From the NCBI GenBank assembly GCA_964394085.1, contig CAYMWF010000014.1:27167-59166 (forward strand): a DNA stretch of 32,000 bases. Direction: 5' to 3'. The translations under genes and the position numbers were made by a program. Below are positions 4,324 through 25,753 of the stretch, in pieces; the first letter of the stretch is position 1, and each line of letters starts with the position of its first letter. The DNA is from an uncultured Gemmatimonadota bacterium. GTDB taxonomy: Bacteria > GCA-2686955 > CAYMWF01. Under the pieces are notes generated by a model, which saw only the letters and a program-made list of their open reading frames with translations, did not search any database and was not told the origin of the DNA.

Positions 4324-4372
4324 TATTTAAATATTGACATGGAATTCGGCTGAATTTAGATTGCGGCCTTTT

Positions 4373-4807: not shown

Positions 4808-4955
4808 GATTGAAATATCAATAAAGAATAACCGGTCCACAGGAAGGTCAACCCGGGATGTTGTGACAATATTCACGTATCTGCAACGATTGAATCAGAC
4901 AAGAAGAAACAACGTGGATTTGACTGCAGAGGATCGGTGACAAGGGAGAATAAAC

Positions 4956-5138: not shown

Positions 5139-5209
5139 TATATTTCAAGGTGAAACAGACAGTTTCCTGAGACGTCCTTCATCCGTAACACCTTAGAGGA
5201 CAATGCTAT

Positions 5210-6900: not shown

Positions 6901-6956
6901 TTAATCGGAGCATTTTCACGAGGTAGAAATTTATAGCTCATCGAAAGGAGCAATCC

Positions 6957-7199
6957 ATGACGCTGGAAGAAAAAGTAAAGGAAATCATCGCTGAGCAGTT
7001 GAGTATCGAAGTATCACAGATTAAGGCTGAATCCTCGTTTATCGAAGACCTCGGAGCGGATTCCTTAGCCACGGTCGAGCTCATTCTCGCTCTCGAAGAT
7101 GCTTTCGATATCGAAGTGCCGGAAGAAGAGGCCGAAAAGCTGCTTACTGTTCAGAATGCAATCGACTATATTAAAGGCACCGTAGACTGGGAAGGATAG
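6957..7199 (+). CDS. acpP: Acyl carrier protein
   Basis: 80 aa acidic protein with phosphopantetheine site [14 protein letters not shown]. Confidence 0.98.
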
Positions 7200-7338
7200 A
7201 CCTCCTTAAGCCGGCCGGTGATCAGGTCAGTTTGATGAATTTCGTTTTGGAGGGTGTGTTGCGCTTTTACGCTATATTGTCGATACGTGCGATATGTCGT
7301 TATCGGATTCTTTCCGGCAGGGGAAAGGGGGGAACGGT

Positions 7339-8577: not shown

Positions 8578-8638
8578 TACAGATTGAATTCCTGATAATT
8601 CAAAAATCCTGTCGTTAGGATGGATGCCGTAATTTTTT

Positions 8639-11221: not shown

Positions 11222-11255
11222 TCCTTGTTCAACAAGTGTTGATCTGAATCATGCA

Positions 11256-11300
11256 GGAGGGGGAGCGCTCTACCCAACCGAAACGAAGGGTTCCCCCTCC
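11256..11300. repeat. Inverted repeat / hairpin downstream of etfA (possible terminator or structured element)
   Basis: GGAGGGGGA (11256-11264) pairs with TCCCCCTCC (11292-11300); nested ACCC (11272-11275) pairs with GGGT (11288-11291). No obvious U-tract. Confidence 0.45.
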
Positions 11301-11564
11301 AGTCGACCTCATTCCGGAACAGCCGGTGTGTGAATGGTTGTTTGAGAATCGAATACCCGCCTCGTATTGTTTCATCAGGGCGTCTTCATAAGCTCCCCTC
11401 GTACGAGCTCTTTGCGATGCGCAGAACTGATTATATATCAGGAGGATATAGAAGCATCGCAAATCGATTTACCCCATATTTCCACCATGTTTATTGAACA
11501 TACGGCAGCGGTTTCTGTTCGAGTCGGGAAATTGACCCCATGGATACCGGCACGCTCCAGGCGG

Positions 11565-11717
11565 TGAGGGAGCGTCTTCCCTTCTCCCTGTTTCCGTAAA
11601 GTTGCTTTTCAACCAGGTTCAGAAGATTCGAAAGGAACATGTGTTCCTGAAAAACTCTTGTCCGAACCCCTCCCGGATGACTCCGCTATATCCGCCTGTC
11701 GGAAAGACGCTCCCTCA
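11565..11717. repeat. Long-range inverted repeat in gene-poor interval
   Basis: TGAGGGAGCGTC TTCC (11565-11580) versus GGAA A GACGCTCCCTCA (11701-11717): 12 bp plus 4 bp complementarity with a single-base bulge. Confidence 0.45.
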
Positions 11718-11828
11718 TCGACTCCACGGTGACGGGAACTGGGTAGGGAAACTCTGTAACATATTGAAGTTGTTGCTGGAATTTGGTGGTTGGAAAAAAT
11801 AATATGGCAGCCTGAACTACAAAACCAA

Positions 11829-11847
11829 ACTACCGGATTGGCCGGTA
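11829..11847. repeat. Perfect 7-bp hairpin
   Basis: CTACCGG-ATTGG-CCGGTAG. Confidence 0.4.
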
Positions 11848-11867
11848 GAAGGAGGGAGAATCAGAAT

Positions 11868-11896
11868 GAGCTGATGAGGAGTCTGGTCAAATCAGC
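11868..11896. repeat. Perfect 7-bp inverted repeat
   Basis: AGCTGAT (11868-11874) ... ATCAGCT (11890-11896). Confidence 0.35.
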
Positions 11897-12194
11897 TGCA
11901 TAGATTGAAGACAAAAGCAACGGAGGTCAAGCCGGAGAGAGAAACCTGTACCAAACACCACTATACATCATGATAAATGATACGTCTCCAATATTGTGAA
12001 CTTCAATATCCATGTCGCACTCATCGAATAAGCTGCAATACCGGGGAAAGAGATGACTCCCTGGATAAATCCCTTAAAAAACACCTGCAGCGCAAATAGC
12101 TCCGTACAGGTAAACCTTGACATATCCATTCAAAACTTGCGGCTTGATCAATTACAGTCGGCCAAGTCGACTTGATTTCGAGTGAACCAGGATA

Positions 12195-12521
12195 TCAATT
12201 CATGTGGAAACGACGGATGTTGAACGGAAGAGAATCATCGGTAACCGACTGAAAAGGGTCATTCTCATGAATCATTTCATCCGGTCGCCTATCCCGAAGT
12301 TTATTTTCAGGCGCTTGTCCCTGCCACACATCGGCCATGATCTGTTTGATGCGTCCCGAGAGAAAAATCCGGATTTTACGGTAATTCCTTTCAGGAGCTC
12401 GGGCCGGTGCCGGCTGGGGTAAAAAGCAGGAGGTAACAGCAATAGCAAGAAGAGACGGAAAAAACAACGGAACGAATATCCATGAAAGATATTTGTTCTG
12501 TGCATGCATGCTCGTGTTCAT
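12195..12521 (-). CDS. Hypothetical small protein with possible lipoprotein-like N terminus (may be spurious)
   Basis: 108 aa minus-strand ORF in an otherwise empty interval. Hydrophobic stretch WIFVPLFFPSLLAIAVTSC could be a lipobox-like signal, and GAGG lies upstream of ATG. No recognised family; the two other overlapping ORFs make it doubtful. Confidence 0.15.
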   Translation of the reverse strand: MNTSMHAQNKYLSWIFVPLFFPSLLAIAVTSCFLPQPAPARAPERNYRKIRIFLSGRIKQIMADVWQGQAPENKLRDRRPDEMIHENDPFQSVTDDSLPFNIRRFHMN

Positions 12522-12668
12522 CAGTTTTCCTCAGCACCCTGTCTCTTTTACCGTGTTAGAATATTGCAACTGGCATGCCGGAAGAGGAACGAGGTCAAGT
12601 TATGCTGTAATGCAATGATTTAAAATACGTTACGGAGAATTCGTTTAATCGCCGGGTTCATTTCCCCT

Positions 12669-12822
12669 GGGTGAATTGCAGATGTCAATGCATAATGCAC
12701 TATCACCCGATAACATCCTGGATGGGTCTTTTACCGCAGAAGGCTGGGTGAAACAGCCCATGCAAACCGGTTCTACCCCGGTTTGTGAGAGCGGTTTCAC
12801 ATTTGTGGATCGCGTAACCCAC
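12669..12822 (+). promoter_or_regulatory. Cluster of hairpins/inverted repeats upstream of the polysaccharide export operon (operator/UAS or structured RNA)
   Basis: GGGTGA-at-TGCA...TGCA-cta-TCACCC (12669-12718); GGCTG...CAGCC (12742-12758); CAAACCGG-TTCTACC-CCGGTTTG (12763-12785); GTGAGA-gcgg-TTTCAC (12785-12800); GTGG...CCAC (12805-12822). Confidence 0.4.
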
Positions 12823-12869
12823 TTATTTACCAATGATTAAACATTCCTTAACCACTTTCTTCAGACATG

Positions 12870-12885
12870 TGGTATACAATTTGCA
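12870..12885 (+). promoter_or_regulatory. Candidate sigma-54 (-24/-12) promoter
   Basis: TGGTATACAATTTGCA against consensus TGGCACG-N4-TTGCA. GG (12871-12872) and GC (12883-12884) have the diagnostic 10-nt spacing. It is 55 nt upstream of the export gene start. Confidence 0.45.
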
Positions 12886-12939
12886 CAAACTCGAGCTAAG
12901 TTGAATACTATGGGATAGTTGCCCGATGGGGAGAGCCGA

Positions 12940-13593
12940 ATGAAAATGAGAAAATTAATCACCACCTGCTTCGCCCTGATCCTTCTCCTTCCGAATGTAT
13001 CTTTGTGTGCCAACGGCGATTATGAAATTCAGGGTGGAGACAGGCTTTATATCGAAGTAATGGATCATACGGAATTGAGTAAAAGCGTAACAGTAAGACC
13101 GGATGGCAAAATATCTTTTCCTCTCATCGGGGATATCTATGCCCGCGGTTTCACTGTAACGCACCTGCAGGAAGTGCTGACGGAAAAACTCGCAGATTAT
13201 GTCCGAGGTACTCACGTCACGGTATTCGTCGAAAGATTTTTCTTCAGCCATGTGCTCGTACTCGGTGCCGTAAAGAATCCAGGCCCGCTTGAAATTTTCG
13301 GTCCTGTGGATGTCATCCAGGTACTGGGAATGACCGAATCGGAAGACAGGGAACCGAAGCGCATCAGGATAATTAGGAAAAATGGAGATGTTACGACGGT
13401 GAGCCTCACCTCCGTGTGGAAGCAGGGGGGTGTGATACAGCACCGGGAAGATTTGCTTCTGCATCCCGGGGATACAATGATCGTTTACGAGAATACGAAA
13501 CTCACCTGGGAGATGATCATGCGTGTAATTATTCTAACGACATTCTTTATGACTGCCTACAATTTCACATATACAGTTACAACCCGCGATTAA
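12940..13593 (+). CDS. Polysaccharide export (Wza/OPX-like) protein, small form
   Basis: The track ORF starts at TTG 12919; ATG 12940 follows GGGGAGAG and gives the signal peptide MKMRKLITTCFALILLLPNVSLCA. Poly_export motif YEIQGGDRLYIEVMDHTELSKSVTVRPDGKISFPLIGDIYARGFTV, an SLBB-like segment VLVLGAVKNPGPLEI, and a hydrophobic C-terminal segment. Confidence 0.85.
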   Translation: MKMRKLITTCFALILLLPNVSLCANGDYEIQGGDRLYIEVMDHTELSKSVTVRPDGKISFPLIGDIYARGFTVTHLQEVLTEKLADYVRGTHVTVFVERFFFSHVLVLGAVKNPGPLEIFGPVDVIQVLGMTESEDREPKRIRIIRKNGDVTTVSLTSVWKQGGVIQHREDLLLHPGDTMIVYENTKLTWEMIMRVIILTTFFMTAYNFTYTVTTRD

Positions 13594-13622: not shown

Positions 13623-15758
13623 ATGACAGAAAAGACTGACAGAATGAAGAGAATCAAGGAGTTCCTGCCGGAACGAGGTGGAGAGGCGGCATCCGCGCCT
13701 AAAGATACACCTTTCGACATCCGGCAGTACTACTCGGTTCTCATGCGGCGGAAAGGGCTGATACTCCTGGTAACGGCACTTTTCTGTTTCGTATCGATTT
13801 ACCATTCACTCAGCAATGTTCCGGTATACCAGTCCACGGCAAAGCTGCTCCTCGAGTCCGGGGGCGGGCTGGTGGTTCTCAACCAGAAGCTGACCTATGT
13901 GCCGGGGTACTCGATGAACACATTCATCGAAATTATGAAATCTCCGATGGTGCTCGGTAAAATAATCGATCGGCTGAACCTGGATATGACACCCAAGCAG
14001 CTGTTGAACCATGTCCAGTACCAGCCGAATCAGAATTCGAACATTCTGAGCATATCAGTAACCCATCCTGATGACAGGTTGGCCAAGGGCATTGCCCAGA
14101 CCGCAGCCGAGCTTGCCGTGGAAGAAGTCAATAACATCTATAACGCTTCCACTACCAACGCATACAATACAATCAATGAGCAGCTCGAAATAACCAAGGT
14201 CCAGTTGATGAAGGCCGAGGAGAGCATCAAAGAATTCCTCGCATCGAAGGGTTACAGGAATATCAAGAGCGAAACGACTGCCAAGCTCTCCCGTCTGGCC
14301 AACCTTACCTCCCGATACAACGATTCAAGGGTCGAGATGAACACCAATTCCAAAGTGCTGGAATACCAGCGGACGACACTTGAAGAAACGCCGGATCTCA
14401 TTCTTAAGGAACAGACGATTACAACGCCAATCCAGATGGAAATCGTCAAGCTGGAGACCGAGCTGGCCAAGAGTCGGATAAGCTATTCCGAAAACCACCC
14501 CAAGGTGCAGTCTCTCGTCGGTAATATCGAAGCCCTGAGAGAGCTGATCGGAAACGGAGTCGAAGATGATCTGACCGTGGAAACGGTTGGTGAAAATCCG
14601 GTGAAGCAAGCACTGCTGAATGAGATTAACCTGCGGAAGTCCGAACAGGTGCAGTCTCATGCAAGACAGACTGAGCTTGCACGGTTGATCGATGAGGTCG
14701 AGTCAAGGTTGAGAAACGCACCTTCCGATGAATTGACCCTCGCCCGCCTCGAGCGTGAGAAAAAAGGACTCGAGAATACGTACTTCTCGCTTCTGTCTAA
14801 ATTCGAGGAAGCGAGAATGATGAAAGATACATCCGCCGGCAACCTGAGCATTCTCGAAGAGGCGGATCTCGTCGGCCCCATCCGTGACAATATTTTCGTC
14901 AACCTGCTGTACGCACTTATCCTCGGGCAGATCATCGGAGGGATCCTGGCGGTAATAATCGACACCCTCGACCCGAGAATCAAGTTCAGCTCCAAGATCG
15001 AGGATTCTCTCGGGATACCCGTCCTGGGTCTCATTCCCGATTTGAGAGAAGATGAGCGTTTCGTAAGGTTCGATTCACCGAAATCGAGGATTACGGAAGC
15101 TTACCATATAATAAAATCGAACATCAATAACGCCATGCCGAAAGACCGGGCATGGACCCTCATGGTGACAAGCGCCTTCCAGGGTGAAGGCAAAACGCTC
15201 ATGAGCACCAACCTGGCTACCGCGATGGCGCTTACCGGCAAACCGACCGTACTTATCGATGCGGATATGAGACGCACCTATCTCCATGAGCGCTTTAAAC
15301 TTCAAAAACATGGTGGTCTGTCGGAATATCTCTTAGGCGAGGCAGGGCTCGAAGATATACTGAAAGACACGGATGTCCCCAGCCTGAAAGTCATTACAGC
15401 GGGCAGAAAACCTCAGAATCCGGCTCAATTGCTCCATTCACCCGAGATAACCAGGCTCTTCGAAGATCTGATCAAGCGAGGTTACTATGTAATAGTCGAC
15501 TCACCGGCTCTTCTGCCGATTGTCGATTCATCCATCATGGCAACATACGTAGACGGTGTAATACTGGTATTCAAAGAAGAATCCACCAGGAAATACACCG
15601 CACAGAAGACGATTGAAAGAATGGTTCGGATCGGTGCGAACATCACCGGCTCGATTTTAAACCAGGCTTCAATCAAGGGATACGGTTACTATTACTACTA
15701 CGGATACCGGTATGGGTACGACTATGGGTATTCCGAAAAAATGGAAACCGGCGCCTGA
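13623..15758 (+). CDS. Wzz chain-length determinant fused to BY-kinase (tyrosine autokinase)
   Basis: N-terminal Wzz domain with TM (FDIRQYYSVLMRRKGLILLVTALFCFVSIY), long coiled region, second TM, then a kinase with Walker A SAFQGEGKTLMSTNLATAMA, Walker A' VLIDADMRR, Walker B-like YVIVDSPALLPIVD, and a C-terminal tyrosine cluster. Confidence 0.93.
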   Translation: MTEKTDRMKRIKEFLPERGGEAASAPKDTPFDIRQYYSVLMRRKGLILLVTALFCFVSIYHSLSNVPVYQSTAKLLLESGGGLVVLNQKLTYVPGYSMNTFIEIMKSPMVLGKIIDRLNLDMTPKQLLNHVQYQPNQNSNILSISVTHPDDRLAKGIAQTAAELAVEEVNNIYNASTTNAYNTINEQLEITKVQLMKAEESIKEFLASKGYRNIKSETTAKLSRLANLTSRYNDSRVEMNTNSKVLEYQRTTLEETPDLILKEQTITTPIQMEIVKLETELAKSRISYSENHPKVQSLVGNIEALRELIGNGVEDDLTVETVGENPVKQALLNEINLRKSEQVQSHARQTELARLIDEVESRLRNAPSDELTLARLEREKKGLENTYFSLLSKFEEARMMKDTSAGNLSILEEADLVGPIRDNIFVNLLYALILGQIIGGILAVIIDTLDPRIKFSSKIEDSLGIPVLGLIPDLREDERFVRFDSPKSRITEAYHIIKSNINNAMPKDRAWTLMVTSAFQGEGKTLMSTNLATAMALTGKPTVLIDADMRRTYLHERFKLQKHGGLSEYLLGEAGLEDILKDTDVPSLKVITAGRKPQNPAQLLHSPEITRLFEDLIKRGYYVIVDSPALLPIVDSSIMATYVDGVILVFKEESTRKYTAQKTIERMVRIGANITGSILNQASIKGYGYYYYYGYRYGYDYGYSEKMETGA

Positions 15759-15942: not shown

Positions 15943-17508
15943 ATGAATAGAAGGGACTGCCTGCGTATTATTTTTTCACTGGTCATACTCTCATTTACGG
16001 TCTTGACAGCGACAGCCCAGATGGTGAGCGGCGGTTCGGATGACGATAACCGGCAGGCTGAAAGAGGCAAACTCGGTCTTTTCGAAGCCGAGTATGAAGG
16101 CGAGTTCGGCCGGCAGCTCGAATCCAAATTGATGAAGCTTACCGGGAGTGAATATTTTCTGGTGCAGGTGGATATCTCACTCTATGCAGAACAGGACAGA
16201 GATCGTTTCGGCGGCATGACCTATGATAACAGGGCGTCCTTGCCCGGATTACCCGTATCACGATCGACGGAGGTGGATGAAGGCAGCGAAAATTATTTCA
16301 TCTCATCGATGAATATTCAACTTTTTTACGATGAGAGCATTGATCAGGAAATTCTAGCCGAAGCCAGAAAATGGGTGCCTTACTGGCTTCCTACGGACAA
16401 TGCCAATCTCGAATTCATTCCCGTGACCTTTAACAGAGAACTCGGCTATGCGGACCGTCTGAAAATGTTTTTCATGTCACTGGCCGGAGTCGTTTTCGCA
16501 CTGCTTCTTCTCCTGGGTTTGTTCCTTCTATTCAAAATGATTTCGAAAACTTTGAAGTCCGCGCTCAGGGAAGGGAGTGACATGGACGCCAGTCTGATCA
16601 GTGAAACAGAAGGTGGTGGAGCGCCGACGCCCGGATCCGGGGTCGGCGGCGATCAGGGGGATGGTGATGGGGCTGGTGGAGCCGGTTCGTCTTCACTCAG
16701 TGATCTGGCCGAGCAGCTGGGTGACGCCGAATCCCTTGACGGATTATCGGGAATGATGGGTGGCGGACCCCAAAAATCGCAAGCGAGGAAATCGAAAGTG
16801 AGACCATTACACGAAAAATCTTTTGCGTTTCTGCTGAACTTGTCAGACGAGCAGATACTGAGCCTTATAAGAGAGTTACCCCCACAGCACATCGCGGTTG
16901 TACTGTCAAGTTTTATTCCCGAACGGGCCAGCGCTCTTTTCAGGATGCTGGACAGCGATCAGCAAATGACGATTGCCGAGCTTCTTGCAGATGAAGATAC
17001 GATACAGAGCGAAGAGCTTCTCCAATTAAAGGAACTGCTGCAGGAGCGTCTCCGCAGCAGGTTCATAGAACCGATGGAAGTGAGCAGGGGAGGAGAAGGC
17101 TTTTTCTCTTCACTTACTTCGCATCTCGACCTGGGTCTGCTCTCCAATCTCGTGGATAATCTCAAAGATCGCAACCCGGACCTTGCGCGGCAGATACGAA
17201 AGAAGCTGTTTCTGTTTGAGGATACTGTACAGCTCGAGGATAATGCGATAAGGATGATAATACAGGCAATCGATTTGAAGGTGCTCGCATTGGCATTGAG
17301 AGATTCGTCACTGGAGGTTAAGGATAAATTCATCCGGAACTGTTCGGACAGGGTACAGGACATAATCGAGGAAGAGCTTGAGATAAGTGTCTCTCAGCCG
17401 AATGAACTTGCCGAGCTTGCGCAAATTGAAGTCGTTAAACTAGTGAGGAATCTTGCAGAGGCCGGCCGGATCGAACTTCCGGTCGCCAATGAATTACCAA
17501 TTCAGTAA
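15943..17508 (+). CDS. FliF C-terminal-like / FliG-like chimeric membrane rotor protein
   Basis: The track ORF starts at 15916; ATG 15943 has upstream GGAGGAA. Signal peptide (MNRRDCLRIIFSLVILSFTVLTATAQ). FliF-C-like segment LESKLMKLTGSEYFLVQVDISLYAEQDRD..., TM MFFMSLAGVVFALLLLLGLFLLFKMI, Gly-rich linker, then FliG M/C domains (RELPPQHIAVVLSSFIPERASALFRML ... LFEDTVQLEDNAIRMIIQAIDLKVLALALRDSSLEVKDKFIRNCSDRVQDIIEEELE). Confidence 0.8.
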   Translation: MNRRDCLRIIFSLVILSFTVLTATAQMVSGGSDDDNRQAERGKLGLFEAEYEGEFGRQLESKLMKLTGSEYFLVQVDISLYAEQDRDRFGGMTYDNRASLPGLPVSRSTEVDEGSENYFISSMNIQLFYDESIDQEILAEARKWVPYWLPTDNANLEFIPVTFNRELGYADRLKMFFMSLAGVVFALLLLLGLFLLFKMISKTLKSALREGSDMDASLISETEGGGAPTPGSGVGGDQGDGDGAGGAGSSSLSDLAEQLGDAESLDGLSGMMGGGPQKSQARKSKVRPLHEKSFAFLLNLSDEQILSLIRELPPQHIAVVLSSFIPERASALFRMLDSDQQMTIAELLADEDTIQSEELLQLKELLQERLRSRFIEPMEVSRGGEGFFSSLTSHLDLGLLSNLVDNLKDRNPDLARQIRKKLFLFEDTVQLEDNAIRMIIQAIDLKVLALALRDSSLEVKDKFIRNCSDRVQDIIEEELEISVSQPNELAELAQIEVVKLVRNLAEAGRIELPVANELPIQ

Positions 17509-17529
17509 ATAACCGGAGGATAGTCGCCG

Positions 17530-17739
17530 ATGATCACGATTCATAGGCTGGACGGAACAGAACTGGTTTTAAATGCGGAACTTATCGAGAATCTGGAACG
17601 AAAGCCCGACACAATTATCACCTTGACCAACGGCAAACGCCTGGTTGCGAAAGAAAGTGTCGAGGATATTTGTGATCTGGTGATTGAATACAGGCGAACG
17701 GTTTACAGCCGGAAGAGAGATAAGGATGCAGGGGTCTGA
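17530..17739 (+). CDS. flbD: FlbD family protein
   Basis: 69 aa. MITIHRLDGTELVLNAELIENLERKPDTIITLTNGKRLVAKESVEDI matches the FlbD pattern and lies directly upstream of motA. Confidence 0.88.
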   Translation: MITIHRLDGTELVLNAELIENLERKPDTIITLTNGKRLVAKESVEDICDLVIEYRRTVYSRKRDKDAGV

Positions 17740-17757
17740 AAAAACAGGAGCTGAGTT

Positions 17758-18504
17758 GTGGGCGTATTCAGTTTATTAGCGTTAATGATTGGGTTTGTTA
17801 TCGTAGCGGGATCGATCGTACTGAACGGAGATCCGCAATGGTTCATTTTCTGGCCGGGAGTGGCGATTACCATGGGCGGCACAGCCTGTGTGGCGATAGT
17901 AGCATATCCGATTCGCCAGATCGGGCACTCGGCGAGAGTGTTTTTCCAGATGGCCGCCAGGAGGAATCCAAAACCCGAAAAGGCTTATGATCGACTCCTG
18001 GATATAGCCCGAACGGCCCGTCGCGAAGGATTCGTCGGCCTTTCGCTGGATGAGAAAAAAGACAGTAATCTGCAATTCCTCCAGACGGGAGTAGAACTTC
18101 TGGCGGATGGAGCCGATCCCGACCAGATTACCGCGATTATGGATTCCAAGTCGGATATGGTTTCGGAGGAATACCTGGTAGGTGAAAAACTTTTTACGAC
18201 GCTGGGAACCGTCGCACCGATGTGGGGCCTGCTCGGGACCGTTATCGGTCTCATCCTCATGTTGAATAATGTCGATAATCCTGAATTGATTCCCAAATCG
18301 ATGGCGATCGCCATGGTGACGACTTTTTACGGCATTTTTCTTGCGGCTCTTTTTATGATTCCTATTGCCATGAAATTCAAAAGCTTCAGAGAGAAGGATG
18401 AAAAAATCCGGGAGATGATTATAAGAGGGGTTCTCTCAATCCAGTCCGGCGACAGTTCCAGGATCGTGCAGGAGAAACTCGAATCTTACAACCTTCTGAG
18501 GTAG
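17758..18504 (+). CDS. motA: MotA/PomA-type stator channel protein
   Basis: 248 aa, 4 TM. MIGFVIVAGSIVL; WPGVAITMGGTACVAIVAYP; GEKLFTTLGTVAPMWGLLGTVIGLILML; IPKSMAIAMVTTFYGIFLAALFMIPIAMK. Confidence 0.93.
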   Translation: MGVFSLLALMIGFVIVAGSIVLNGDPQWFIFWPGVAITMGGTACVAIVAYPIRQIGHSARVFFQMAARRNPKPEKAYDRLLDIARTARREGFVGLSLDEKKDSNLQFLQTGVELLADGADPDQITAIMDSKSDMVSEEYLVGEKLFTTLGTVAPMWGLLGTVIGLILMLNNVDNPELIPKSMAIAMVTTFYGIFLAALFMIPIAMKFKSFREKDEKIREMIIRGVLSIQSGDSSRIVQEKLESYNLLR

Positions 18505-18509
18505 GAATA

Positions 18510-19256
18510 ATGAGCACAAGAGGTCTTTATACTCAAAAGAAGCGAGCTGGCTCCGGAACCGCCCTCCCACCTTGGATTACAACCTACAGCGATCTCATCA
18601 GCCAGCTACTGGTTTTCTTTATCATGTTGTTTTCTCTGACAAAAGCCGGCAGGATCGTAGAGCTCCAGGAATCCCTCAAGGAGTTCCAGGAAAAAGTCGA
18701 AATGGGATACCTTGTCAAGGACGGTGAGAAGCCGGGTGAAGTGGTGCTGAGGCTGGAGGCGGAGGTCCTTTTCGATTCCGGAAAGGCTCTGTTGAAGGAG
18801 ACCGCCCGACCTGCGCTCGACAATGTATATGAAATCATCCTGGAAGACATAGATCGCAGGGGGGCCGCAACCATCAGAGTGGAGGGGCATACCGATACGA
18901 GGCCCATTCACACAGTGAGGTTCCCCTCCAACTGGGAGTTGTCGGCGGCAAGAGCCATCAGTGTCGTCAGGTATTTCCTGGCAAAGGGGCTTTTTACGCC
19001 GGATAATATGCAGGCGGTGGGCTTCGGAGAGTTCAAACCGATAGCTCCCAACGACACCTACGCGAACATGCAGAAGAACCGCCGGGTAGAGATCAAGATC
19101 ATCAGAACCAATATCACTACCGAGGATGTCGCATTTCCAACCCTTACCGAGGAAGGAATTATCACTGTCGATACACTCGGACAGGAGTTGGTAATTCCGC
19201 ATATCGATAAGAAATTCGAGGAATTTTTAGGGGAAATCGATACTGTCGAACAGTAA
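18510..19256 (+). CDS. motB: MotB/PomB-type stator protein with OmpA-like domain
   Basis: N-terminal PPWITTYSDLISQLLVFFIMLFSL with the ion-binding Asp (D28), and C-terminal OmpA/MotB peptidoglycan-binding domain (IRVEGHTDTRPI...NWELSAARAISVVRYFLAKG...VGFGEFKPIAPNDTYANMQKNRRVEI). Confidence 0.93.
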   Translation: MSTRGLYTQKKRAGSGTALPPWITTYSDLISQLLVFFIMLFSLTKAGRIVELQESLKEFQEKVEMGYLVKDGEKPGEVVLRLEAEVLFDSGKALLKETARPALDNVYEIILEDIDRRGAATIRVEGHTDTRPIHTVRFPSNWELSAARAISVVRYFLAKGLFTPDNMQAVGFGEFKPIAPNDTYANMQKNRRVEIKIIRTNITTEDVAFPTLTEEGIITVDTLGQELVIPHIDKKFEEFLGEIDTVEQ

Positions 19257-19281: not shown

Positions 19282-22200
19282 ATGCAAACCAAAAGCAAAA
19301 CTTTACTAATCTTCACAACCATTTTTATTCTTGCTGCCCACCATGCCGTTCTCGCTCAGCAGGCGGAGTTTGATTTCAGCAGGTGGCCCGGAACCGTAAA
19401 CCTGGAAGGAGAACACTTGGGGGATCTCCTCGGTTCCACCGTCGTTGCCGGTGATTTTGACGGTGACGGGTGGCAGGATCTTGTTATCGGAGCACCCCAA
19501 TCTGATGAGCCGGGCAAAGCTTCCTGCGGCAAGGTATACGTTATTTACGGAAAAGCGGGATACGAGGGGAGCTACGTGTTAGACGATCCGTTCGTCGATC
19601 ATTTGACCCTCTCGGGTGATACAGGGAATGATGAACTCGGCAATGTTATCGATGTATGGGATGTGGAAGGAAACGGATCGGATGATCTGCTGCTGGGGGC
19701 TCCAAAGGCGGATGTCTCCGGTAAGGTTGATGCAGGAAAGATTTATCTGTTATACGGGGGATCAAGGACGACAGGGGAGTTCAATATCGGTGAATTTCCA
19801 GGTATGCTCCGGGTTGATGGAAACGAGGCTGCGGATCAGTTCGGCGCGTCGGTTGCAGCCGGTGATTTTACCGGTGATCTTGAAACCGATTTGATTGTGG
19901 GCGCTCCGCTTGCGGAGCCAGCCGGTGAAGCGTCTACAACGGGCATCGCCTATCTTCTGAAAGGACCGCTTGGAAGCGGAGTGAAAACTCTGGATGCACT
20001 TGCATCGATGGTAGTTTACGGCGAACAGACCGATGATCGCCTCGGTTCGCAGGTTCTCGGGCTTAATTTAAACGACACCGGTCCGGATGATATGGTCTTT
20101 GCCGCTCCCAACGCGGATCTGCCCGACGAGCAGAGGGAGCGAGGCATTCTTTACGTAATGTTCGGCTCAGGATCACTGCCCGCGGAGGTTGAATTGGCCC
20201 AGGGGGATTCCGCTGATGTGACGATGGCCGGAAATGCAGGCTCTTCCCGTTTCGGAACCGCACTCGATGGGGGTGATATAGACGGGAACGGGTACGATGA
20301 GATTGTAGCCGGGGCACCGGGCGGCGGAAGCGTATTGGTAATCGAAGGACGGTCGAGCTTCGACCCTTTCATCGATTTGACCTATTCCAGTCCCGCTCTG
20401 TCAATATCCGGCAGTGATTCTCTCGGGTCGGTGCTTCAGGTAAATGATTACACCGGGGATGGTCTGGCTGACATCTTTTTAGGTACACCTGCCACCGCTC
20501 CGAGCGGGAAAGCATACCTGGTAAACGGCGGTCCGTTGACAGGGGCATCAGGCTCGGTTCCCGATCTGGGCCGCTGTATTTTCAGCGGAGACAGAACCGG
20601 CGATAGACTTGGTCAGGCTGTCTGCCTGGGTGATTTTGTTAAAGACGGCAAACCCGATATGATCATCGGCGCTCCCCAGGCTGAGGGAGAAGAAGGTACA
20701 GATGCCGGGCTCGTTTATATCGTGAAGGGCGGGACGCCATACTTGACCGATCTTTATCCAGGATACGGGGAGAGTGGAATACCAGCGGATTTCGACATGG
20801 AATTCTGGATTCGGGATGACCTTACTGCAAGTGAAGAGGACATCAATCTCAACACATTGGAAGTATATCTTTCGGGGTATACCTTCACTGCAGCGGATTT
20901 CGACACCACGGGCTCAGTTGGTGCGGAGGCGATTCACGTGCTTCTCGATATAGTGCCCGGCACCTTCCTGCCCAATACAGCCGTCGACGCTGAGATAACT
21001 GGATTCGACAAGGCCGGTAACGAGATCCCGACGACACAGTACGTTTTCCATATGCTGAATGATTTCACGGGGCCTTGGCTCGAGAACATTGCTCCTCCGG
21101 ATTCTTCGAAATACCAGCCGGTTCAGCCGGAAATCGCCTTCAGCATTCTCGACGCCGCCAGCGGTGTGGATCTCGATGAAGTCTGGATGCATGTCGCCTA
21201 CGATACAACGGCGGGCATGCCCGTTACCGACACCTTCTTCCCTAAAACGGATACGTTGATCGTGGTTGACACCATTTCGGTATCCCCACTGGGATACAGA
21301 ATCAGCTATATACCGCCTGAGCCCTTTATGATGGGCGACCAGATACATGTAGAAGTCGAAGGAAAAGACTTCGCGGGTTTTCCTCTGCAGGATCCCCGGA
21401 AGTGGCTCTTTACCACGGTGGACAATGATACTTTACCGCCCATCCTACAGAATGAATTTCCCGCGAACGGCGCTTCCGGAGTAGAGGTCCAGGCTGTAAA
21501 TGTGGATGGCTTTCTGGTAGAGATCTATGATGAGCAAACAGGGGTTAATCCCGCATCCATAGATGTCACCAGGACTTACGAAGCTATTTCAGGAGACACG
21601 ACAGTATCGATCACAGATTTGATCGAAATCGGGAGAATTGATGCGAATCTTTATACTGTCTCGTATCGTCCGACCGGACAGGAAGGTGATCCTCAGTTTC
21701 AGTATGGCGAAACAGCCAGGTTCAATGTACGTGCTTTTGATCTTGCGTTCGAGCCGAACCTGATGGATACGACATATTCATTCATCCTCGAAACCGACAT
21801 AAATCCGCCGGAGATCACCGGACGGCAGCCGAACCCTGACCTGGTCGATTCGATATCGGTGTTCTCAGAAATCAAGTTCGATATCACCGATGACAAGAGC
21901 GGAGTCGATGACTCTACGATCGTTTTCAAGGTGAATAATGAAGAAATAGACATTGAGGACCTGATCTCTCCGAATGAATACCTGGGATATACGATCAGAT
22001 ACCCGAACATCCCTGACTCCCTGGAACAGGTGCCGCTCCCAGAAGATACGGTCACCGTTTCCGCCTGGGCCGCCGATAACGTCGGCAACGAGATGGTGCT
22101 GCCGGAAGAATGGAGTTTTATCGCCGTTCCGGATTCAAGAACGCCCAGGATGACATTTTCGATGGAAATGCTTCTGGTGGAGCAGTCCGACACTATAGAA

Positions 22201-22881
22201 GTCTGGGAGACAATCCCGCCTTCCGATTACCTCCTCAATAAAATCCCGCAGGACTCGATCCGTATCTCCTTTACCGTAACGGATACTATTGATGAATGGG
22301 AATCAGGTATCGACCTGTCGACGATGCTGATAATGATGGAGCTTGAGAATACCGGTCCGCCCCCGATCATTCTTCTCAGTGAGGGTGAGGAAACCCATAC
22401 CGGGTACAAAACCGGCACCATGGATATCGACGAAACTGAATCACCCGGTTTATATAACGTTAGTTTCGAACCGGACCGTCTTTCAATTGCCGAAGAGGTG
22501 ACACTGTCCGTCTCTGTCAGGGATAAGGGCGGAATCCAGGTGGTGGAGCAGTTACGGTTTAATATCAGTTACGGCGGAAGGCTCAATAAACCGTTCCCTC
22601 CTATAATCACTCCGGCTCATGGCTCAGATCCGAATAACCGAACGACAATCCTTTTCCTTGGTGAGGGTTCGGGAACATTTACGCTTTACAACCTTGAAGG
22701 ATACGCGGTTTACAGCGAGGAGAACATACCTCCTCTCAGCGGCTCCCTGTACAAAGTGACATGGGGCGGAGAATACGGCGCACCGGGGAGCAGCCAGAGA
22801 ATCGTACCGGCCGGTCTTTATGTATATCAATTCAAATCGAGCTCAAAGGTTTATAACGGCACAATCGCCGTAGCGCGTTAA
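19282..22881 (+). CDS. Large secreted/surface protein: FG-GAP (integrin-alpha-like) repeats, Ig-like modules, C-terminal FlgD-Ig/sorting-like segment
   Basis: 1199 aa with signal peptide. Repeated GS/DxxGDGxxDLxIGAP motifs (AGDFDGDGWQDLVIGAPQSD, VWDVEGNGSDDLLLGAPKAD, GGDIDGNGYDEIVAGAPGG, VNDYTGDGLADIFLGTPAT). Ig-like modules with SGVD motifs. C-terminal IVPAGLYVYQFKSSSKVYNGTIAVAR. Confidence 0.88.
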   Translation: MQTKSKTLLIFTTIFILAAHHAVLAQQAEFDFSRWPGTVNLEGEHLGDLLGSTVVAGDFDGDGWQDLVIGAPQSDEPGKASCGKVYVIYGKAGYEGSYVLDDPFVDHLTLSGDTGNDELGNVIDVWDVEGNGSDDLLLGAPKADVSGKVDAGKIYLLYGGSRTTGEFNIGEFPGMLRVDGNEAADQFGASVAAGDFTGDLETDLIVGAPLAEPAGEASTTGIAYLLKGPLGSGVKTLDALASMVVYGEQTDDRLGSQVLGLNLNDTGPDDMVFAAPNADLPDEQRERGILYVMFGSGSLPAEVELAQGDSADVTMAGNAGSSRFGTALDGGDIDGNGYDEIVAGAPGGGSVLVIEGRSSFDPFIDLTYSSPALSISGSDSLGSVLQVNDYTGDGLADIFLGTPATAPSGKAYLVNGGPLTGASGSVPDLGRCIFSGDRTGDRLGQAVCLGDFVKDGKPDMIIGAPQAEGEEGTDAGLVYIVKGGTPYLTDLYPGYGESGIPADFDMEFWIRDDLTASEEDINLNTLEVYLSGYTFTAADFDTTGSVGAEAIHVLLDIVPGTFLPNTAVDAEITGFDKAGNEIPTTQYVFHMLNDFTGPWLENIAPPDSSKYQPVQPEIAFSILDAASGVDLDEVWMHVAYDTTAGMPVTDTFFPKTDTLIVVDTISVSPLGYRISYIPPEPFMMGDQIHVEVEGKDFAGFPLQDPRKWLFTTVDNDTLPPILQNEFPANGASGVEVQAVNVDGFLVEIYDEQTGVNPASIDVTRTYEAISGDTTVSITDLIEIGRIDANLYTVSYRPTGQEGDPQFQYGETARFNVRAFDLAFEPNLMDTTYSFILETDINPPEITGRQPNPDLVDSISVFSEIKFDITDDKSGVDDSTIVFKVNNEEIDIEDLISPNEYLGYTIRYPNIPDSLEQVPLPEDTVTVSAWAADNVGNEMVLPEEWSFIAVPDSRTPRMTFSMEMLLVEQSDTIEVWETIPPSDYLLNKIPQDSIRISFTVTDTIDEWESGIDLSTMLIMMELENTGPPPIILLSEGEETHTGYKTGTMDIDETESPGLYNVSFEPDRLSIAEEVTLSVSVRDKGGIQVVEQLRFNISYGGRLNKPFPPIITPAHGSDPNNRTTILFLGEGSGTFTLYNLEGYAVYSEENIPPLSGSLYKVTWGGEYGAPGSSQRIVPAGLYVYQFKSSSKVYNGTIAVAR

Positions 22882-22898: not shown

Positions 22899-24542
22899 AT
22901 GTTTTTCAAGGCTCGGAACCAGCTCATACTCTCTGTTCTGATCATCGTCGCTGCAGCTTTGCCTTCCGAGGCTTCTTTCGAGAGGAGGGCAGGAATCCGT
23001 GCGCTGGGTATGGGGGGCGCTTTTACCGGAGTCGCCGATGATGCTTCAGCCCCTTACTGGAATCCTGCCGGAATTGGGCGGTTTTCAGCGGTTGAATTCA
23101 GAGCCGAGTATGCCCGGCCGTTTACCGGAGCTGCAAACATTGATATCAACGATGTGGATTTTGCTTTCGCGTATCCTTTCGGTAACTGGGGAACCATGCT
23201 GGGTGGTTACGACTATCTCGGTAACTACCTGTACAATGAAGGAGTCGGGATTTTTTCATACGGCTTAGGTCTTCTCAAGCGTAAACCGCTTCTTGTCGGA
23301 TTTAATGCGCGTCTTTACAGTGTCAATTACAGCGTCGGGGGGCTTTCGTCCGTGGATGCAGGTCAGGTTAAGAAGGATCTCCTGTTTTCGAATTATGGAT
23401 TCGGTGAATCGGCTTTCGGCTTTGATCTGGGTGCTTTATACAGGTACCGGAATAAATGGACGGTCGGAGTTTCACTGTTCAATCTGAATGCACCATCGAC
23501 GAGCCTGAATCCGGACGATCAAGACGAACTTCCTCTCACTGGCCGGATAGGGATATCGTATTTATTCAAAAGGCTCACGGGAGCACTCGACCTGGAATAC
23601 AGGGATCAGTACTTCATGGACAGCAAGCCTGTATATATTCATACAGGCGTTGAGCAGGAGCTGTTCAGGAAACGACTGCACCTTCGGGCCGGTGCTTTCG
23701 GTATGGTTTCCCCCGAATTCTCACCCCGCCTTACAGCCGGATTCAGCTACAACTTCCTCAGAAGGGAATGGGTCGAATTCGGCACGGATCTTCTTGACGG
23801 CAAGGAATACCAGTATCTTAAACGGCTCTGGCTCACTCTCGAATACGGCGCGGCGTTCCCAGTTGCATCAGGTTCCTTTGAAGGCTCTTTCGGAGATCAG
23901 CGTATCGGTCTCAAAATCACATTCGACACTGCCAAGGAATACAAAAAATACATGACGCGCCAGGAACTGGAAGAAATGCTGAAAGACAAGAAGATAGAGG
24001 TCGCTCTCGATATCACCGAGTCGCTTCTCGAAAAGGAATTCGAGATCATCGAAGGTGAGAAAGAGATGATCCAGCAGGAACTCCAGGAGAGGTTCGACCA
24101 GGAACGGCAGGAGCTCATGCAAGACCTCGAGATGCAGCAGGAGCTGGAACTCGAGCAAAAACGTATAGAGCAGGATCTATTGACTGCAGGACAGCAGGAA
24201 GAGCTGGAAGAACAGATTCGTCAGTTGCAGGAGATTATCAGGCAGCAGCAGCGGGCGATCGAAATGAGCACCAAGACGAATGAAGCGCTTCAGCATCTCA
24301 TGCTTGCCGTCAGATATTATTTTCTGCAGCAGTACGGGGAGGCTGAAAAGGAATGTTATATAGCCATCGAGCTCGCCCCTCATATCGCACTGGCATACAA
24401 GCGTCTGGGATCGATTTACTACAAGCAGGGCAGGTTCAGCGATGCCAGCGCCGCATGGAAGAAGGCGCTTGATATCGATCCGACCGATGAAGAACTGCAA
24501 AATTGGCTTGAAAGATTCAGGAAAGGGAAAAATCTCGAATGA
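22899..24542 (+). CDS. PorV/UPF0164-like outer-membrane beta-barrel fused to a coiled coil and TPR domain
   Basis: AGIRALGMGGAFTGVADDASAPYWNPAGIG is the typical PorV/UPF0164 start and is followed by barrel-like strands. A Glu/Gln-rich coiled coil (about 23950-24270) and TPR helices (AEKECYIAIELAPHIALAYKRLGSIYYKQGRFSDASAAWKKALDIDPTDEE) complete it. Confidence 0.85.
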   Translation: MFFKARNQLILSVLIIVAAALPSEASFERRAGIRALGMGGAFTGVADDASAPYWNPAGIGRFSAVEFRAEYARPFTGAANIDINDVDFAFAYPFGNWGTMLGGYDYLGNYLYNEGVGIFSYGLGLLKRKPLLVGFNARLYSVNYSVGGLSSVDAGQVKKDLLFSNYGFGESAFGFDLGALYRYRNKWTVGVSLFNLNAPSTSLNPDDQDELPLTGRIGISYLFKRLTGALDLEYRDQYFMDSKPVYIHTGVEQELFRKRLHLRAGAFGMVSPEFSPRLTAGFSYNFLRREWVEFGTDLLDGKEYQYLKRLWLTLEYGAAFPVASGSFEGSFGDQRIGLKITFDTAKEYKKYMTRQELEEMLKDKKIEVALDITESLLEKEFEIIEGEKEMIQQELQERFDQERQELMQDLEMQQELELEQKRIEQDLLTAGQQEELEEQIRQLQEIIRQQQRAIEMSTKTNEALQHLMLAVRYYFLQQYGEAEKECYIAIELAPHIALAYKRLGSIYYKQGRFSDASAAWKKALDIDPTDEELQNWLERFRKGKNLE

Positions 24543-25753
24543 CGGATCCCCCTGTCAGAGAGCACAGTTATTTAGCCAGGAATTACTCGAAAATCCAAAA
24601 AGGTGTATACCTGCTGTTATTACTGGCCCTGAGCGTGGCTGTTATACTGGTGATTTTCGCACTTATATCCTCTCCGGAGCAGAAATCTTATCCATTCAGC
24701 CCCGATAGTGATGAAGTTGCCAAGATGGTCTCGGTAACTGTCACGGGCTCCATCCACAGACCGGGAACATTCGAATTACCGGAAGGTTCGACTGTGTATG
24801 ATGCCCTGGTACTGGCGGGTGTCAAGAATACCGCGGACCTTGGAAACCTCGTTCTCGAACAACGCTTTGCCAGCAGTGAGAATTTTATCCATGTCGACGA
24901 AATAGAAAGGGATGAAGATGCCGCTGTAGACATGAATCCGTATATCGTACCGTTGATTGACAGTGGCGAAGACAGTTTAGAATCGAACAAAGGTAGTGAT
25001 ACCGGGGATGAAACTTCCGACATAGCCTCGTTAAACGTCGTCAATATACTTTATGTCGGAGCTCCTCATGTATTCCTTCTGGCATCTGTCGCTCCGGCGA
25101 CCGGAAACGGATCGTTTCTGGTGATCCCGCCCCAGACCCGAATTTCTCATCCCAGGTCCGGAGCCGGCAATCAGCTCAGCCACCTTTACCTTCTCGGCGG
25201 CGCCGGCTCGATTGTCGCATATGTCGAACGGCTCCTGCAATTACCTGTTCACTACTACGTGGAAGACAAGCAGGAAACGTTCATTACAACCGTAGAGCTG
25301 ATCGGAGGATTCCGAGTCAAGCTTGATAATGAAATAGCGGAGCATCTCCAAAAGGAGCCGGGATATCAAACCCTCACCGGGATGGACAGTTTTCGATTCA
25401 TTCAGTATTTCGATATATCCTCCAATGCGGATACTTACAGGAGAAGCACGCAGACCCGTATGTTGAGGTGGCGCCGATTCCTGGATTCCGTCTACGCTAA
25501 TTTTCGTGGCATGGACTGGCGTCAGACCATTCTCCTTGCAAGGCACATCATTCTCAACCTCGAGACGAACCTGGCACTGCAGGATGTTTTATATCTTGCC
25601 AGGAGCGCCAGAACCCACGGAGGGTTCAACTTCGACTTCCACCTGATTCAGGGTTCATACCAGAAGATCGGTGATAAGGTCTATTGGGAAATCGATGACA
25701 GCGTCGCCAGGATCGAGGGCTTGAAGCTTATTGAAATGGTTCTGAATCGGTGA
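24539..25753 (+). CDS. SLBB domain fused to LytR-CpsA-Psr (LCP)-like domain, membrane anchored
   Basis: N-terminal TM (GVYLLLLLALSVAVILVIFALI), SLBB-like VSVTVTGSIHRPGTFELPEGSTVYDALVLAGV, LCP-like FLVIPPQTRI ... SIVAYVERLLQLPVHYYVEDKQETFITTVELIGGFRVKL. Overlaps the upstream stop by 4 nt. Confidence 0.72.
   Translation: MTDPPVREHSYLARNYSKIQKGVYLLLLLALSVAVILVIFALISSPEQKSYPFSPDSDEVAKMVSVTVTGSIHRPGTFELPEGSTVYDALVLAGVKNTADLGNLVLEQRFASSENFIHVDEIERDEDAAVDMNPYIVPLIDSGEDSLESNKGSDTGDETSDIASLNVVNILYVGAPHVFLLASVAPATGNGSFLVIPPQTRISHPRSGAGNQLSHLYLLGGAGSIVAYVERLLQLPVHYYVEDKQETFITTVELIGGFRVKLDNEIAEHLQKEPGYQTLTGMDSFRFIQYFDISSNADTYRRSTQTRMLRWRRFLDSVYANFRGMDWRQTILLARHIILNLETNLALQDVLYLARSARTHGGFNFDFHLIQGSYQKIGDKVYWEIDDSVARIEGLKLIEMVLNR

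Follow-up and report, generated by a model that had tools for sequence, protein, structure and literature searches.

What is a set of flagellar motor genes doing among genes for polysaccharide export and surface proteins? The question is raised by a stretch of 32,000 nucleotides from an uncultured Gemmatimonadota bacterium (assembly GCA_964394085.1, contig CAYMWF010000014.1, positions 27,167 to 59,166), called the window below, whose own coordinates are used throughout. Four adjacent, co-directional genes of this window encode a FliF/FliG-like fusion protein, FlbD, MotA and MotB. An earlier note, made from the sequence alone, had offered two readings of them, a reduced or repurposed ion-driven rotary or gliding motor and, more plainly, a rearranged flagellar locus. 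We conclude, with a probability of roughly 55%, that the cassette is a flagellum-independent, ion-driven rotor-stator module coupled to an adhesin or to polysaccharide export. The four genes were recovered at exactly the bounds first proposed for them:

15943 to 17508, forward strand: fusion of a mini-FliF with the middle and C-terminal domains of FliG (FliG_MC), putative rotor subunit, 521 aa (Pfam, PDB match, profile and AlphaFold/Foldseek; from its ATG at 15943 on, identical to the JGI gene call P0001)
17530 to 17739, forward strand: small protein of the FlbD/SwrD family, 69 aa (Pfam FlbD)
17758 to 18504, forward strand: stator A subunit of the MotA/PomA type, 248 aa (Pfam MotA_ExbB; end-to-end PomA alignment)
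18510 to 19256, forward strand: stator B subunit of the MotB type, 248 aa (Pfam MotB_plug and OmpA)

The intergenic gaps are 21, 18 and 5 bp. Among the Pfam-scanned open reading frames (ORFs) of the 32-kb window there was no flagellar rod, hook, export, switch, C-ring (FliM/N) or filament gene, in agreement with the earlier remark that flagellar structural genes are missing beside the cassette.

The first question is what the 521-aa protein is. Its parts, as delimited by profile searches and by the AlphaFold model with its predicted local distance difference test (pLDDT), are the following:

15943 to 16020, forward strand: signal peptide or first transmembrane helix (TM1), aa 1-26, ending in ATAQ (hydrophobic aa 6-24; modelled helix 3-26)
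16042 to 16425, forward strand: periplasmic ring-building domain resembling RBM3 of FliF, aa 34-161 (profile against PDB; Foldseek; core pLDDT 87-96 in the full-length model)
16447 to 16587, forward strand: transmembrane helix (equivalent of TM2) with cytoplasmic extension, aa 169-215 (hydrophobicity peak aa 179-197; modelled helix 169-215)
16594 to 16794, forward strand: disordered Gly-, Ser-, Asp- and Glu-rich linker, aa 218-284 (pLDDT <50), replacing the C-terminal tail of FliF and the N-terminal domain of FliG (FliG_N)
16807 to 17067, forward strand: FliG middle (ARM_M) domain, aa 289-375 (Pfam FliG_M; alignment with Thermotoga maritima FliG; pLDDT >90)
17095 to 17460, forward strand: FliG C-terminal domain with the torque helix, aa 385-506 (Pfam FliG_C; Foldseek)

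In the C-terminal half, Pfam recognizes FliG_M with an E value of 6e-9 (36.4 bits; cut-off 25) and FliG_C with one of 1e-25 (90.2 bits; cut-off 23.3), and residues 289-506 align with the crystal structure of the T. maritima FliG MC fragment (PDB 1lkv) at E 1e-25. The pLDDT exceeds 90 across the FliG part, and the modelled FliG_C superimposes on that of T. maritima and on the MotAB-bound FliG_C chain of 8ucs with template modelling (TM) scores of 0.86-0.95 and root-mean-square deviations of 1.0-1.3 Å in Foldseek. Within the torque helix, R470 corresponds to E. coli R281 and E477/E478 to D288/D289, and an Arg occupies the K264 position; the equivalent of E. coli R297 is not kept. The GG linker (G383-G384) and a motif of the MFXF type (LFLFED, 422-427) are retained, and G384, F423, F425, D427, R470 and E477 prove near-invariant when 19 family members are aligned with 24 ordinary FliGs.

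The FliG_N model reached only 19.2 bits in Pfam (cut-off 25), with the match falling on residues 314-407, that is, in the M/C region, and because residues 218-284 are disordered in the model no folded FliG_N fits there. The EHPQR motif, by which FliG binds FliM, is degraded to ELPPQH in the window protein, with no Arg at the R160-equivalent position, and the motif is variable among all 18 family members aligned. Against the NCBI FliG equivalog TIGR00207 the protein scores 119.8 bits, below the cut-off of 226.7. A match to MgtE_N (20 bits, below the cut-off) was set aside: the protein is not a magnesium transporter, and the match reflects the known fold relationship between FliG and MgtE_N.

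The N-terminal domain of the window protein, taken by itself, has no Pfam match, YscJ_FliF and YscJ_FliF_C included. When 15 N-domains of the family were combined into a profile, the three best PDB matches were FliF M-ring chains (E 2.4e-4 to 4.9e-4); the profile aligns to the first helix-strand of RBM3 (Salmonella FliF 234-275) and to the last (404-443), the segment that carries the RGDxL...F motif right before TM2. Pfam YscJ_FliF_C is matched by 11 of these 15 N-domains (best E 7.9e-5), and no other family recurs. The domain modelled by AlphaFold (pLDDT 77) has the layout alpha-beta-(short hairpin)-beta-alpha-beta, and its top Foldseek matches are the S-ring/RBM3 parts of FliF from Vibrio and Salmonella (8z4d, 8z5v, 6sd1; E 2e-4 to 4e-3, TM at most 0.54), followed by PrgK/SctJ and SpoIIIAG. 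A hidden Markov model (HMM) of the family N-domain also recovers genuine FliF proteins of 517-534 aa upstream of ordinary fliG on unrelated metagenome contigs. In one related locus (L007; related loci are cited by such numbers, and single proteins by P numbers), the two halves of the chimera are separate adjacent genes, the first of them with a YscJ_FliF_C match.

The periplasmic part is only about 130 aa long. RBM1, RBM2 and a full beta-collar are not present, and at the beta-collar position the model has only a short hairpin (strands 91-94 and 106-109), a mere stub of the collar. G68, P101 and W148 are invariant in the truncated RBM3 of the family. The RGD of the RGDxL motif has been lost through a 3-residue deletion in the window protein (16375-16390, aa ~145-150) and in its 76%-identical orthologue; most relatives keep it. 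The sole indication that TM1 may be cleaved is the A-x-A/Q-like ends seen across the family.

Judged from sequence and model together, the 521-aa protein is a mini-FliF (RBM3 with a collar stub) fused to FliG_MC. The chimera claimed in the earlier note has stood up in both halves, the FliG half by Pfam and the FliF half by the family profile, by YscJ_FliF_C in the relatives, by Foldseek and by HMM recovery, so that homology to FliG and FliF is found in the product of 15943-17508 by sequence profile and by fold. By homology, one membrane helix and a flexible linker join a periplasmic RBM3-type ring-building domain to a cytoplasmic FliG torque helix, and the parts that connect to a flagellum are gone: FliG_N, EHPQR, RBM1 and RBM2 of FliF, and most of the beta-collar.

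Beside the putative rotor lie the genes for FlbD and the stator. Pfam bears out the identities previously assigned to the other three proteins: FlbD (PF06289; E 3e-24, 84.7 bits with a cut-off of 24.7, profile positions 1-58 of 59), MotA (MotA_ExbB; E 8e-26) and MotB (MotB_plug, 37.1 bits, E 2e-9; OmpA, 65.5 bits, E 6e-18). Residues 3-244 of MotA align with residues 3-241 of Vibrio PomA at E 5e-39; other flagellar MotA structures come next, and TolQ reaches only E 1e-3. R88 and D98/E99 of MotA correspond to R88 and E96/E97 of PomA, and the two conserved prolines are there as well. A comparison of nine cassette MotAs taken from different loci shows the Arg of PomA R88 in every one, an acidic residue at the E96 position in most, and the prolines kept. 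MotB has a transmembrane helix with the channel residue Asp28, a plug and an OmpA-like peptidoglycan-binding domain, and the channel Asp occurs in 12 of 12 family MotBs, both copies included where two paralogues occur. By homology, MotA and MotB can be said to carry every feature of an ion-conducting, peptidoglycan-anchored 5:2 flagellar stator, the four transmembrane helices and the enlarged, PomA-like cytoplasmic torque domain of the A subunit included. In the classification of PMC12505986, which treats the PomA/MotA-type stator architecture as flagella-specific, the sequence places this stator in the flagellar type ('FIT', PomA-like) and not in the generic TolQR/ExbBD type. MotA nevertheless falls below the NCBI equivalog cut-offs for PomA, MotA and MotP (best scores 171.8 bits against 341 for PomA and 157.4 against 237 for PRK09109), and none of the four cassette proteins reaches the NCBIfam equivalog thresholds set for flagellar FliG, PomA/MotA and MotB.

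FlbD belongs to the SwrD family, for which genetics has shown a tie to torque output in Bacillus; a 2026 preprint describes hexameric FlbD rings with MotA as a predicted, unvalidated partner. The gene is present in L001, L003, L006, L007, L008, L013, L016, L018 and L020 and absent from L011, L012 and L015. Two adjacent MotB paralogues were seen in L007 (12936-14473), L008 (12528-14150), L013 (12995-14558) and L020 (14612-15991); both keep the channel Asp in the first three, and the L020 pair is known from phmmer matches alone. Such pairing of Asp-bearing MotBs suggests a heterodimeric axle of B subunits.

If the cassette is a motor, its neighbours may tell what it acts on. The genes directly upstream and downstream are these:

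12919 to 13593, forward strand: Wza-like polysaccharide export protein (Pfam Poly_export E 8e-23; NCBIfam XrtA/PEP-CTERM export model E 2e-28, below its cut-off)
13623 to 15758, forward strand: Wzc-like chain-length determinant/tyrosine autokinase with a Tyr-rich tail (Pfam Wzz, GNVR and P-loop; NCBIfam eps_fam 163.9 bits, cut-off 108)
19282 to 22881, forward strand: surface protein with FG-GAP (integrin-like propeller) repeats, 1199 aa, with a probable type-B C-terminal type IX secretion system (T9SS) signal (Pfam FG-GAP E 2.5e-36)
22899 to 24542, forward strand: outer membrane barrel of the PorP/SprF/PorV kind with a charged coiled-coil and C-terminal tetratricopeptide repeats (TPR) (Pfam PorP_SprF, TraF_2 and TPR)
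24539 to 25753, forward strand: protein with SLBB and LytR-CpsA-Psr (LCP) glycopolymer transferase-like domains, overlapping the preceding gene by 4 bp (Pfam)

These neighbours agree with the polysaccharide-export and surface-protein genes that the earlier note had described around the cassette. The surface-polymer block runs from the Wza-like and Wzc-like genes through the cassette, FG-GAP, barrel-TPR and SLBB-LCP genes to a GT4 and several GT9 glycosyltransferase genes, and the spacing is operon-like from the chimera through the LCP gene, with gaps of 5-25 bp down to the 4-bp overlap. The Wza-like gene probably starts at the ATG at 12940; it keeps its position in L001 and L006 and is also found upstream of the cassette in L015. 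The Wzc-like protein is 94% identical to its L001 orthologue, with a ratio of nonsynonymous to synonymous substitution rates (dN/dS) of 0.03. At its C-terminus (15690-15758), Tyr and Gly are packed unusually densely in a tail, GYGYYYYYGYRYGYDYGYS, that presumably serves a BY-kinase as its autophosphorylation cluster. The barrel protein scores 25.2 bits with PorP_SprF (cut-off 22.3) and E 1e-13 with the NCBIfam PorV/PorQ model, the PorV and PorP models staying below their cut-offs. Full-length homologues with barrel and TPR adjoin the cassette in L011 (E 4e-49), L003 (E 2e-13), L018, L020 and L021. The SLBB-LCP gene is kept at the same position in L001 and L006. A T9SS may occur in Gemmatimonadetes (PMC11285876).

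The remainder of the window is ordinary chromosome, with sucCD, fabD/G/F, rnc and etfBA preceding the surface-polymer block. Scans of the window for promoters and terminators gave no excess over shuffled sequence, and an Rfam scan gave no matches. About 1.7 kb between etfA and the Wza-like gene (11222-12918) have a lower GC content, no convincing ORF and no Rfam match; the equivalent gap in the orthologous L001 holds an 83-aa gene call. The ORF at 3403-4323 encodes a PTS EIIA-2 domain with two CBS domains and has no relation to the cassette.

A single locus could be an accident, and the distribution of the cassette therefore matters. An exhaustive search of 1.8 billion representative proteins yielded, besides ordinary FliGs, a family of about 20 proteins at the 50% cluster level. 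A word-index search with the single protein returned only 4 relatives, a genome scan with it gave no match, and N-domain profile searches returned only P0153, candidates having probably been swamped by hydrophobic and low-complexity words. The roughly 20 proteins have one architecture in common, in which a signal peptide or TM1 leads into a ~130-aa periplasmic domain, followed by a transmembrane helix, a low-complexity linker and FliG_MC; some members add a second FliG_C or a C-terminal TPR. The cassette recurs, amid non-flagellar envelope genes, in about 15 divergent loci at 24-38% identity, assigned to at least two phyla. The closest syntenic relatives of the window are labelled Gemmatimonadota, and an alignment-based genome scan found three contigs of Gemmatimonadota metagenome-assembled genomes (MAGs) with relatives at 34-39% identity. 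Among the candidate carrier assemblies are the Gemmatimonadota MAGs CAZBBK01, NYZA01 and CAZFNT01, Omnitrophota GCA_042566865.1, GCA_964397495.1, GCA_044232495.1, the 5.4-Mb contig ctg38566l of ERZ21862645 and the 237-kb contig Ga0315312_1000048.

The order of chimera, flbD, motA and motB is conserved in related genomes: it is kept in L001 and L006, and variants lacking FlbD occur in L011 and L015. L001 is an orthologous locus, 76% identical and fully syntenic over about 20 kb. L006, from a Gemmatimonadota MAG, has the order of the window, etfA upstream included: Wza, Wzc, chimera, FlbD, MotA, MotB, FG-GAP (here 1301 aa with a CHU_C type-B T9SS signal), PorP/SprF with TPR, and SLBB-LCP. L011, on a 5.4-Mb contig, has a 27%-identical chimera, MotA, MotB, a 1556-aa FG-GAP/CHU_C protein and PorP/SprF with TPR, without FlbD and Wza/Wzc. 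L015, on an AT-rich contig, has the Wza-like gene, a CheY-like receiver, the chimera, MotA and MotB. In L003, L018, L020 and L021 the genes are a barrel-TPR protein, a chimera with its own C-terminal TPR, a protein of ~770-820 aa of unknown kind, FlbD, MotA and MotB, the last doubled in L020 and L021; loci of the L003 type adjoin housekeeping genes and a 2035-aa protein. For gene content, L018 and L021 were compared solely with the window's own proteins. The Omnitrophota-type loci (L007, L008-10 and L013) consist of a LysM protein, a chimera with two FliG_C or split into two genes, FlbD, MotA and two MotBs, and the exopolysaccharide loci that surround them also encode Bac_transf, Wzy_C, polysaccharide deacetylase, exosortase EpsH/EpsI, glycosyltransferases and a Wzx-type flippase. 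At NCBI the L013 protein is named 'FliG C-terminal domain-containing protein [Candidatus Omnitrophota bacterium]'. The Pfam gene tables of the related loci and the scanned proteins of L006 and L020 contain no rod, hook, export-gate, FliM, FliN, FliH/I/J or flagellin gene. Ordinary flagellar loci met in the same scan (L017 and L028) have a full FliF followed by an ordinary FliG of 336-338 aa.

Three further arrangements of FliG-like genes were observed. In L026 (OEAS01000389.1, 3786-11984), six consecutive FliG_MC-like ORFs of 235-501 aa, one with two FliG_C, form a tandem array of paralogues adjoining a BspA-type leucine-rich-repeat protein. In L019 (Ga0209755_10010427, 476-6067; also P0011), a 996-aa protein is composed of FliM, DUF4116 repeats, FliG_M and two FliG_C, and an 861-aa relative of the barrel-TPR protein precedes it. 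P0134 (817 aa) and P0140 (920 aa) look, on inspection of their sequences, like natural full-length FliF-FliG fusions with FliG_N and are distinct from the truncated chimera family.

Could the cassette then be a defence system? A Zorya-like anti-phage system built on a MotAB-type motor would be in keeping with the match of MotB to ZorB models (E 3e-22), ZorAB being a known non-flagellar relative of MotAB. However, that match is limited to the shared OmpA/MotB region, MotA has no ZorA match, and PADLOC matched none of the chimera, FG-GAP and barrel proteins; there are no ZorC/D-like genes or other components, and across relatives the locus is syntenic beside housekeeping genes (fab, rnc, etf), unlike a defence island. 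This is the least probable of the explanations weighed here, and Zorya or any other defence system was rejected on the PADLOC result.

An accessory part in a true flagellar system deserves more weight, although we consider it improbable. In that case the host would be flagellated, motAB, together with flbD, would supply stators to ordinary flagella, and the FliG-like membrane protein would act in regulation, for instance by sequestering or priming stators as a decoy or parking site. The motAB genes often lie apart from other flagellar genes, and the phyla assigned to the relatives include flagellated species. The MotA of the cassette aligns end to end with flagellar PomA/MotA and keeps the charges that contact the rotor. 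Apart from the cassette, flagellar operons are the only known setting of FlbD (Pfam description; PMC13232269). On the other hand, the cassette sits amid envelope and not flagellar genes in those ~15 loci, all four proteins miss the NCBIfam flagellar equivalog cut-offs, and purifying selection maintains both a ring-building domain and a torque helix, neither of which a mere tether would need.

Control-type genes lie by some of the cassettes. A CheY-like receiver is encoded directly upstream of the L015 chimera (1408-1779), and a histidine kinase and a GGDEF response regulator are encoded next to the L013 cassette (6494-9160); these may be control inputs to a rotor that has no FliM-binding motif. 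The same neighbours can be counted for a non-rotary sensor or scaffold, in which a MotAB-type channel on a FliG-like platform would report proton motive force or envelope state, or would organise or gate the Wza/Wzc or T9SS cargo machinery, and so regulate exopolysaccharide or adhesin output. In Pseudomonas, Caulobacter and Vibrio, stators do provide input to the control of c-di-GMP and exopolysaccharide, and no obvious shaft or rod links the putative ring to the outer membrane. We nevertheless regard a sensor or scaffold as unlikely, if somewhat less so than the accessory role: the residues specific to torque are conserved (the equivalents of FliG R281, D288 and D289; MotA R88 in all and the acidic E96 position in most), FlbD/SwrD with its genetic tie to torque output is kept in most loci, and the RBM3 ring domain has been preserved.

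Is the cassette under selection at all? In comparison with the 76%-identical L001, the nine genes from Wza to LCP have dN/dS values of 0.03-0.12 with synonymous divergence (dS) above 1, and the four cassette genes have values of 0.06-0.08 at saturating dS. A decaying remnant of a lost flagellum would account for the presence of only a subset of flagellar genes, and remnants are raised as one possibility for the rotor proteins found in 11% of non-motile genomes (PMC12199754). It is nonetheless very improbable here because all nine genes, the four of the cassette among them, are under purifying selection; moreover, no reading frame is broken, conservation extends to the catalytic and interface residues, and the same fusion is kept with conserved partners in loci assigned to different phyla.

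Collectively, the comparative evidence, comprising the chimera, the complete PomA-like stator and the recurrent envelope context, favours the reduced or repurposed motor of the earlier note, whose rotation or gliding we infer. Its plainer alternative, a rearranged flagellar locus, is hard to square with a fusion that is conserved, with the absence of FliG_N and the loss of the FliM-binding motif, and with synteny that recurs. As a more specific and tentative proposal, the module may be a trans-envelope rotary machine, in which a FliF(RBM3)-FliG(MC) ring spun by MotAB moves a T9SS-delivered FG-GAP adhesin through its barrel-coiled-coil-TPR partner or drives polysaccharide extrusion. The fusion protein would assemble into a membrane ring by RBM3 oligomerisation and ARM_M-ARM_C stacking, as FliG does in the C-ring. 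Ion flow would turn the MotA pentamers, these would push on FliG_C and spin the minimal ring, and FlbD/SwrD might assist the stator, as is thought for Bacillus and spirochaetes. The torque would act on the cell envelope and not on a filament, most likely through the co-operonic barrel-coiled-coil-TPR protein, whose charged coiled-coil and TPR would sit in the periplasm, with the FG-GAP adhesin as T9SS cargo, and/or through the Wza/Wzc export machinery. The outcome could be a gliding-like movement of adhesin or a driven deposition of surface polymer; this output is the weakest step of the proposed mechanism.

Several points weigh against a flagellum-independent motor of this kind. Gemmatimonadota and Omnitrophota both include flagellated members, and the hosts may also have complete flagella. 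Ring formation, rotation and a physical link to the outer membrane proteins are steps that we infer. The CHU_C match of the FG-GAP protein in the window is marginal (E 0.055, as against 6e-6 for the orthologue in L006 and 1e-7 for that in L011). The partners differ by subtype, a T9SS adhesin with the barrel in one and LysM with exopolysaccharide genes in another, so the output may vary among lineages. Only about one quarter of the bootstrap replicates of a neighbour-joining FliG_MC tree unite the whole family, and MotA is 29-36% identical between cassette types as against 30-34% to Vibrio PomA. In the same tree the subfamilies are supported (type A at 94%, the Omnitrophota type with the 459-aa split form at 91%, two pairs at 98-100%), and the long branches make attraction artefacts possible. 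The truncated RBM3 shared by the family, with its invariant G68, P101 and W148, suggests a single origin without proving it, family monophyly being weak in the tree and the MotA types being about as far from each other as from PomA.

To our knowledge, the torque interface between FliG and MotA has been described only inside flagella. All the parts of the cassette belong to known families, and databases give the chimera generic names ('FliG C-terminal domain-containing protein' and the like, or 'flagellar motor switch protein FliG'); what would be new is the reading at the level of the system, in which a flagellar rotor-stator works in the absence of a flagellum. The literature searched, which omitted most subscription journals, contained no description of the cassette. 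A 2026 review of gliding motors covers GldLM, AglRQS and others and includes nothing built on FliG and MotAB, and PMC12199754 asks whether rotor parts in non-motile genomes could serve another function. If the motor reading is true, the rotor-stator pair is reusable as a module, and the chimera offers structural and biophysical work a natural minimal rotor with MS-ring and FliG in one polypeptide. It would also point to an unknown energy-coupling step in the exopolysaccharide or T9SS-cargo biology of poorly studied phyla. Should the more tentative trans-envelope machine exist, Gemmatimonadota-like bacteria, Omnitrophota and other uncultured lineages would have a third way, derived from the flagellum, of gliding or of handling surface polymers.

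How does the cassette compare with systems already known? In Flavobacterium gliding, GldLM drives the adhesin SprB, which is paired with SprF. Like GldLM/PorLM with SprB and SprF, the cassette combines a putative ion-driven 5:2 motor with a large adhesin, a probable bearer of the type-B T9SS signal, and a PorP/SprF-like partner, and both occur in the FCB superphylum. In contrast, GldL and GldM have no sequence relation to the chimera rotor, GldM itself crosses the periplasm while the driven element of the cassette would be a ring of the FliF/FliG type, and the T9SS link is absent in the Omnitrophota-type loci. In Myxococcus, AglRQS with Nfs moves spore-coat polysaccharide. AglRQS, with Glt in gliding and with Nfs, resembles the cassette as a proton-driven stator homologue that moves adhesion sites or polysaccharide and is encoded near polysaccharide export functions. 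It differs in being of the TolQR/ExbBD type ('generic' in PMC12505986), in having no FliG-like partner, and in that it is thought to travel and not to turn a fixed ring. ZorAB of Zorya is likewise a MotAB-like complex outside the flagellum, but ZorA has a long cytoplasmic tail, the context is defence, and the window holds no match to ZorA or ZorC/D. The orphan flagellar genes of non-flagellated bacteria (FliF/FlhA/FliI of Chlamydia, and Lysobacter; PMC9927559, PMC12199754) are also subsets kept without a filament. They are, however, export or regulatory parts or scattered leftovers, and not one of them joins a fused minimal rotor to a stator of its own within an operon conserved together with envelope genes.

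Engineered FliF-FliG fusions (in Salmonella, and in Vibrio with PDB 8z4d/8z4g) likewise make covalent 1:1 rotor subunits, and 8z4d is matched by both halves of the chimera; those fusions are full-length (945 aa) and still build a flagellum, whereas the chimera is natural, about half that size and without RBM1/2 and FliG_N. The comparison with the flagellar motor core is the closest in parts, all four proteins being homologous to motor components (FliF, FliG, MotAB/PomAB and FlbD/SwrD), with the torque helix, the MotA charges, the MotB Asp, the plug and the peptidoglycan-binding domain kept. The flbD-motA-motB order, too, matches spirochaete and Bacillus-type operons. Unlike that core, the cassette has a FliF reduced to one RBM3-like domain with a stub collar and therefore no seat for an export gate or rod; its FliG, fused to this FliF part, lacks the N domain and EHPQR; and in place of C-ring, export, rod, hook and filament genes it has polysaccharide export and a T9SS-type adhesin alongside. 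The trans-envelope machine proposed here could have come from the flagellar motor by reduction, or it could be related to a pre-flagellar rotor-stator core of that motor.

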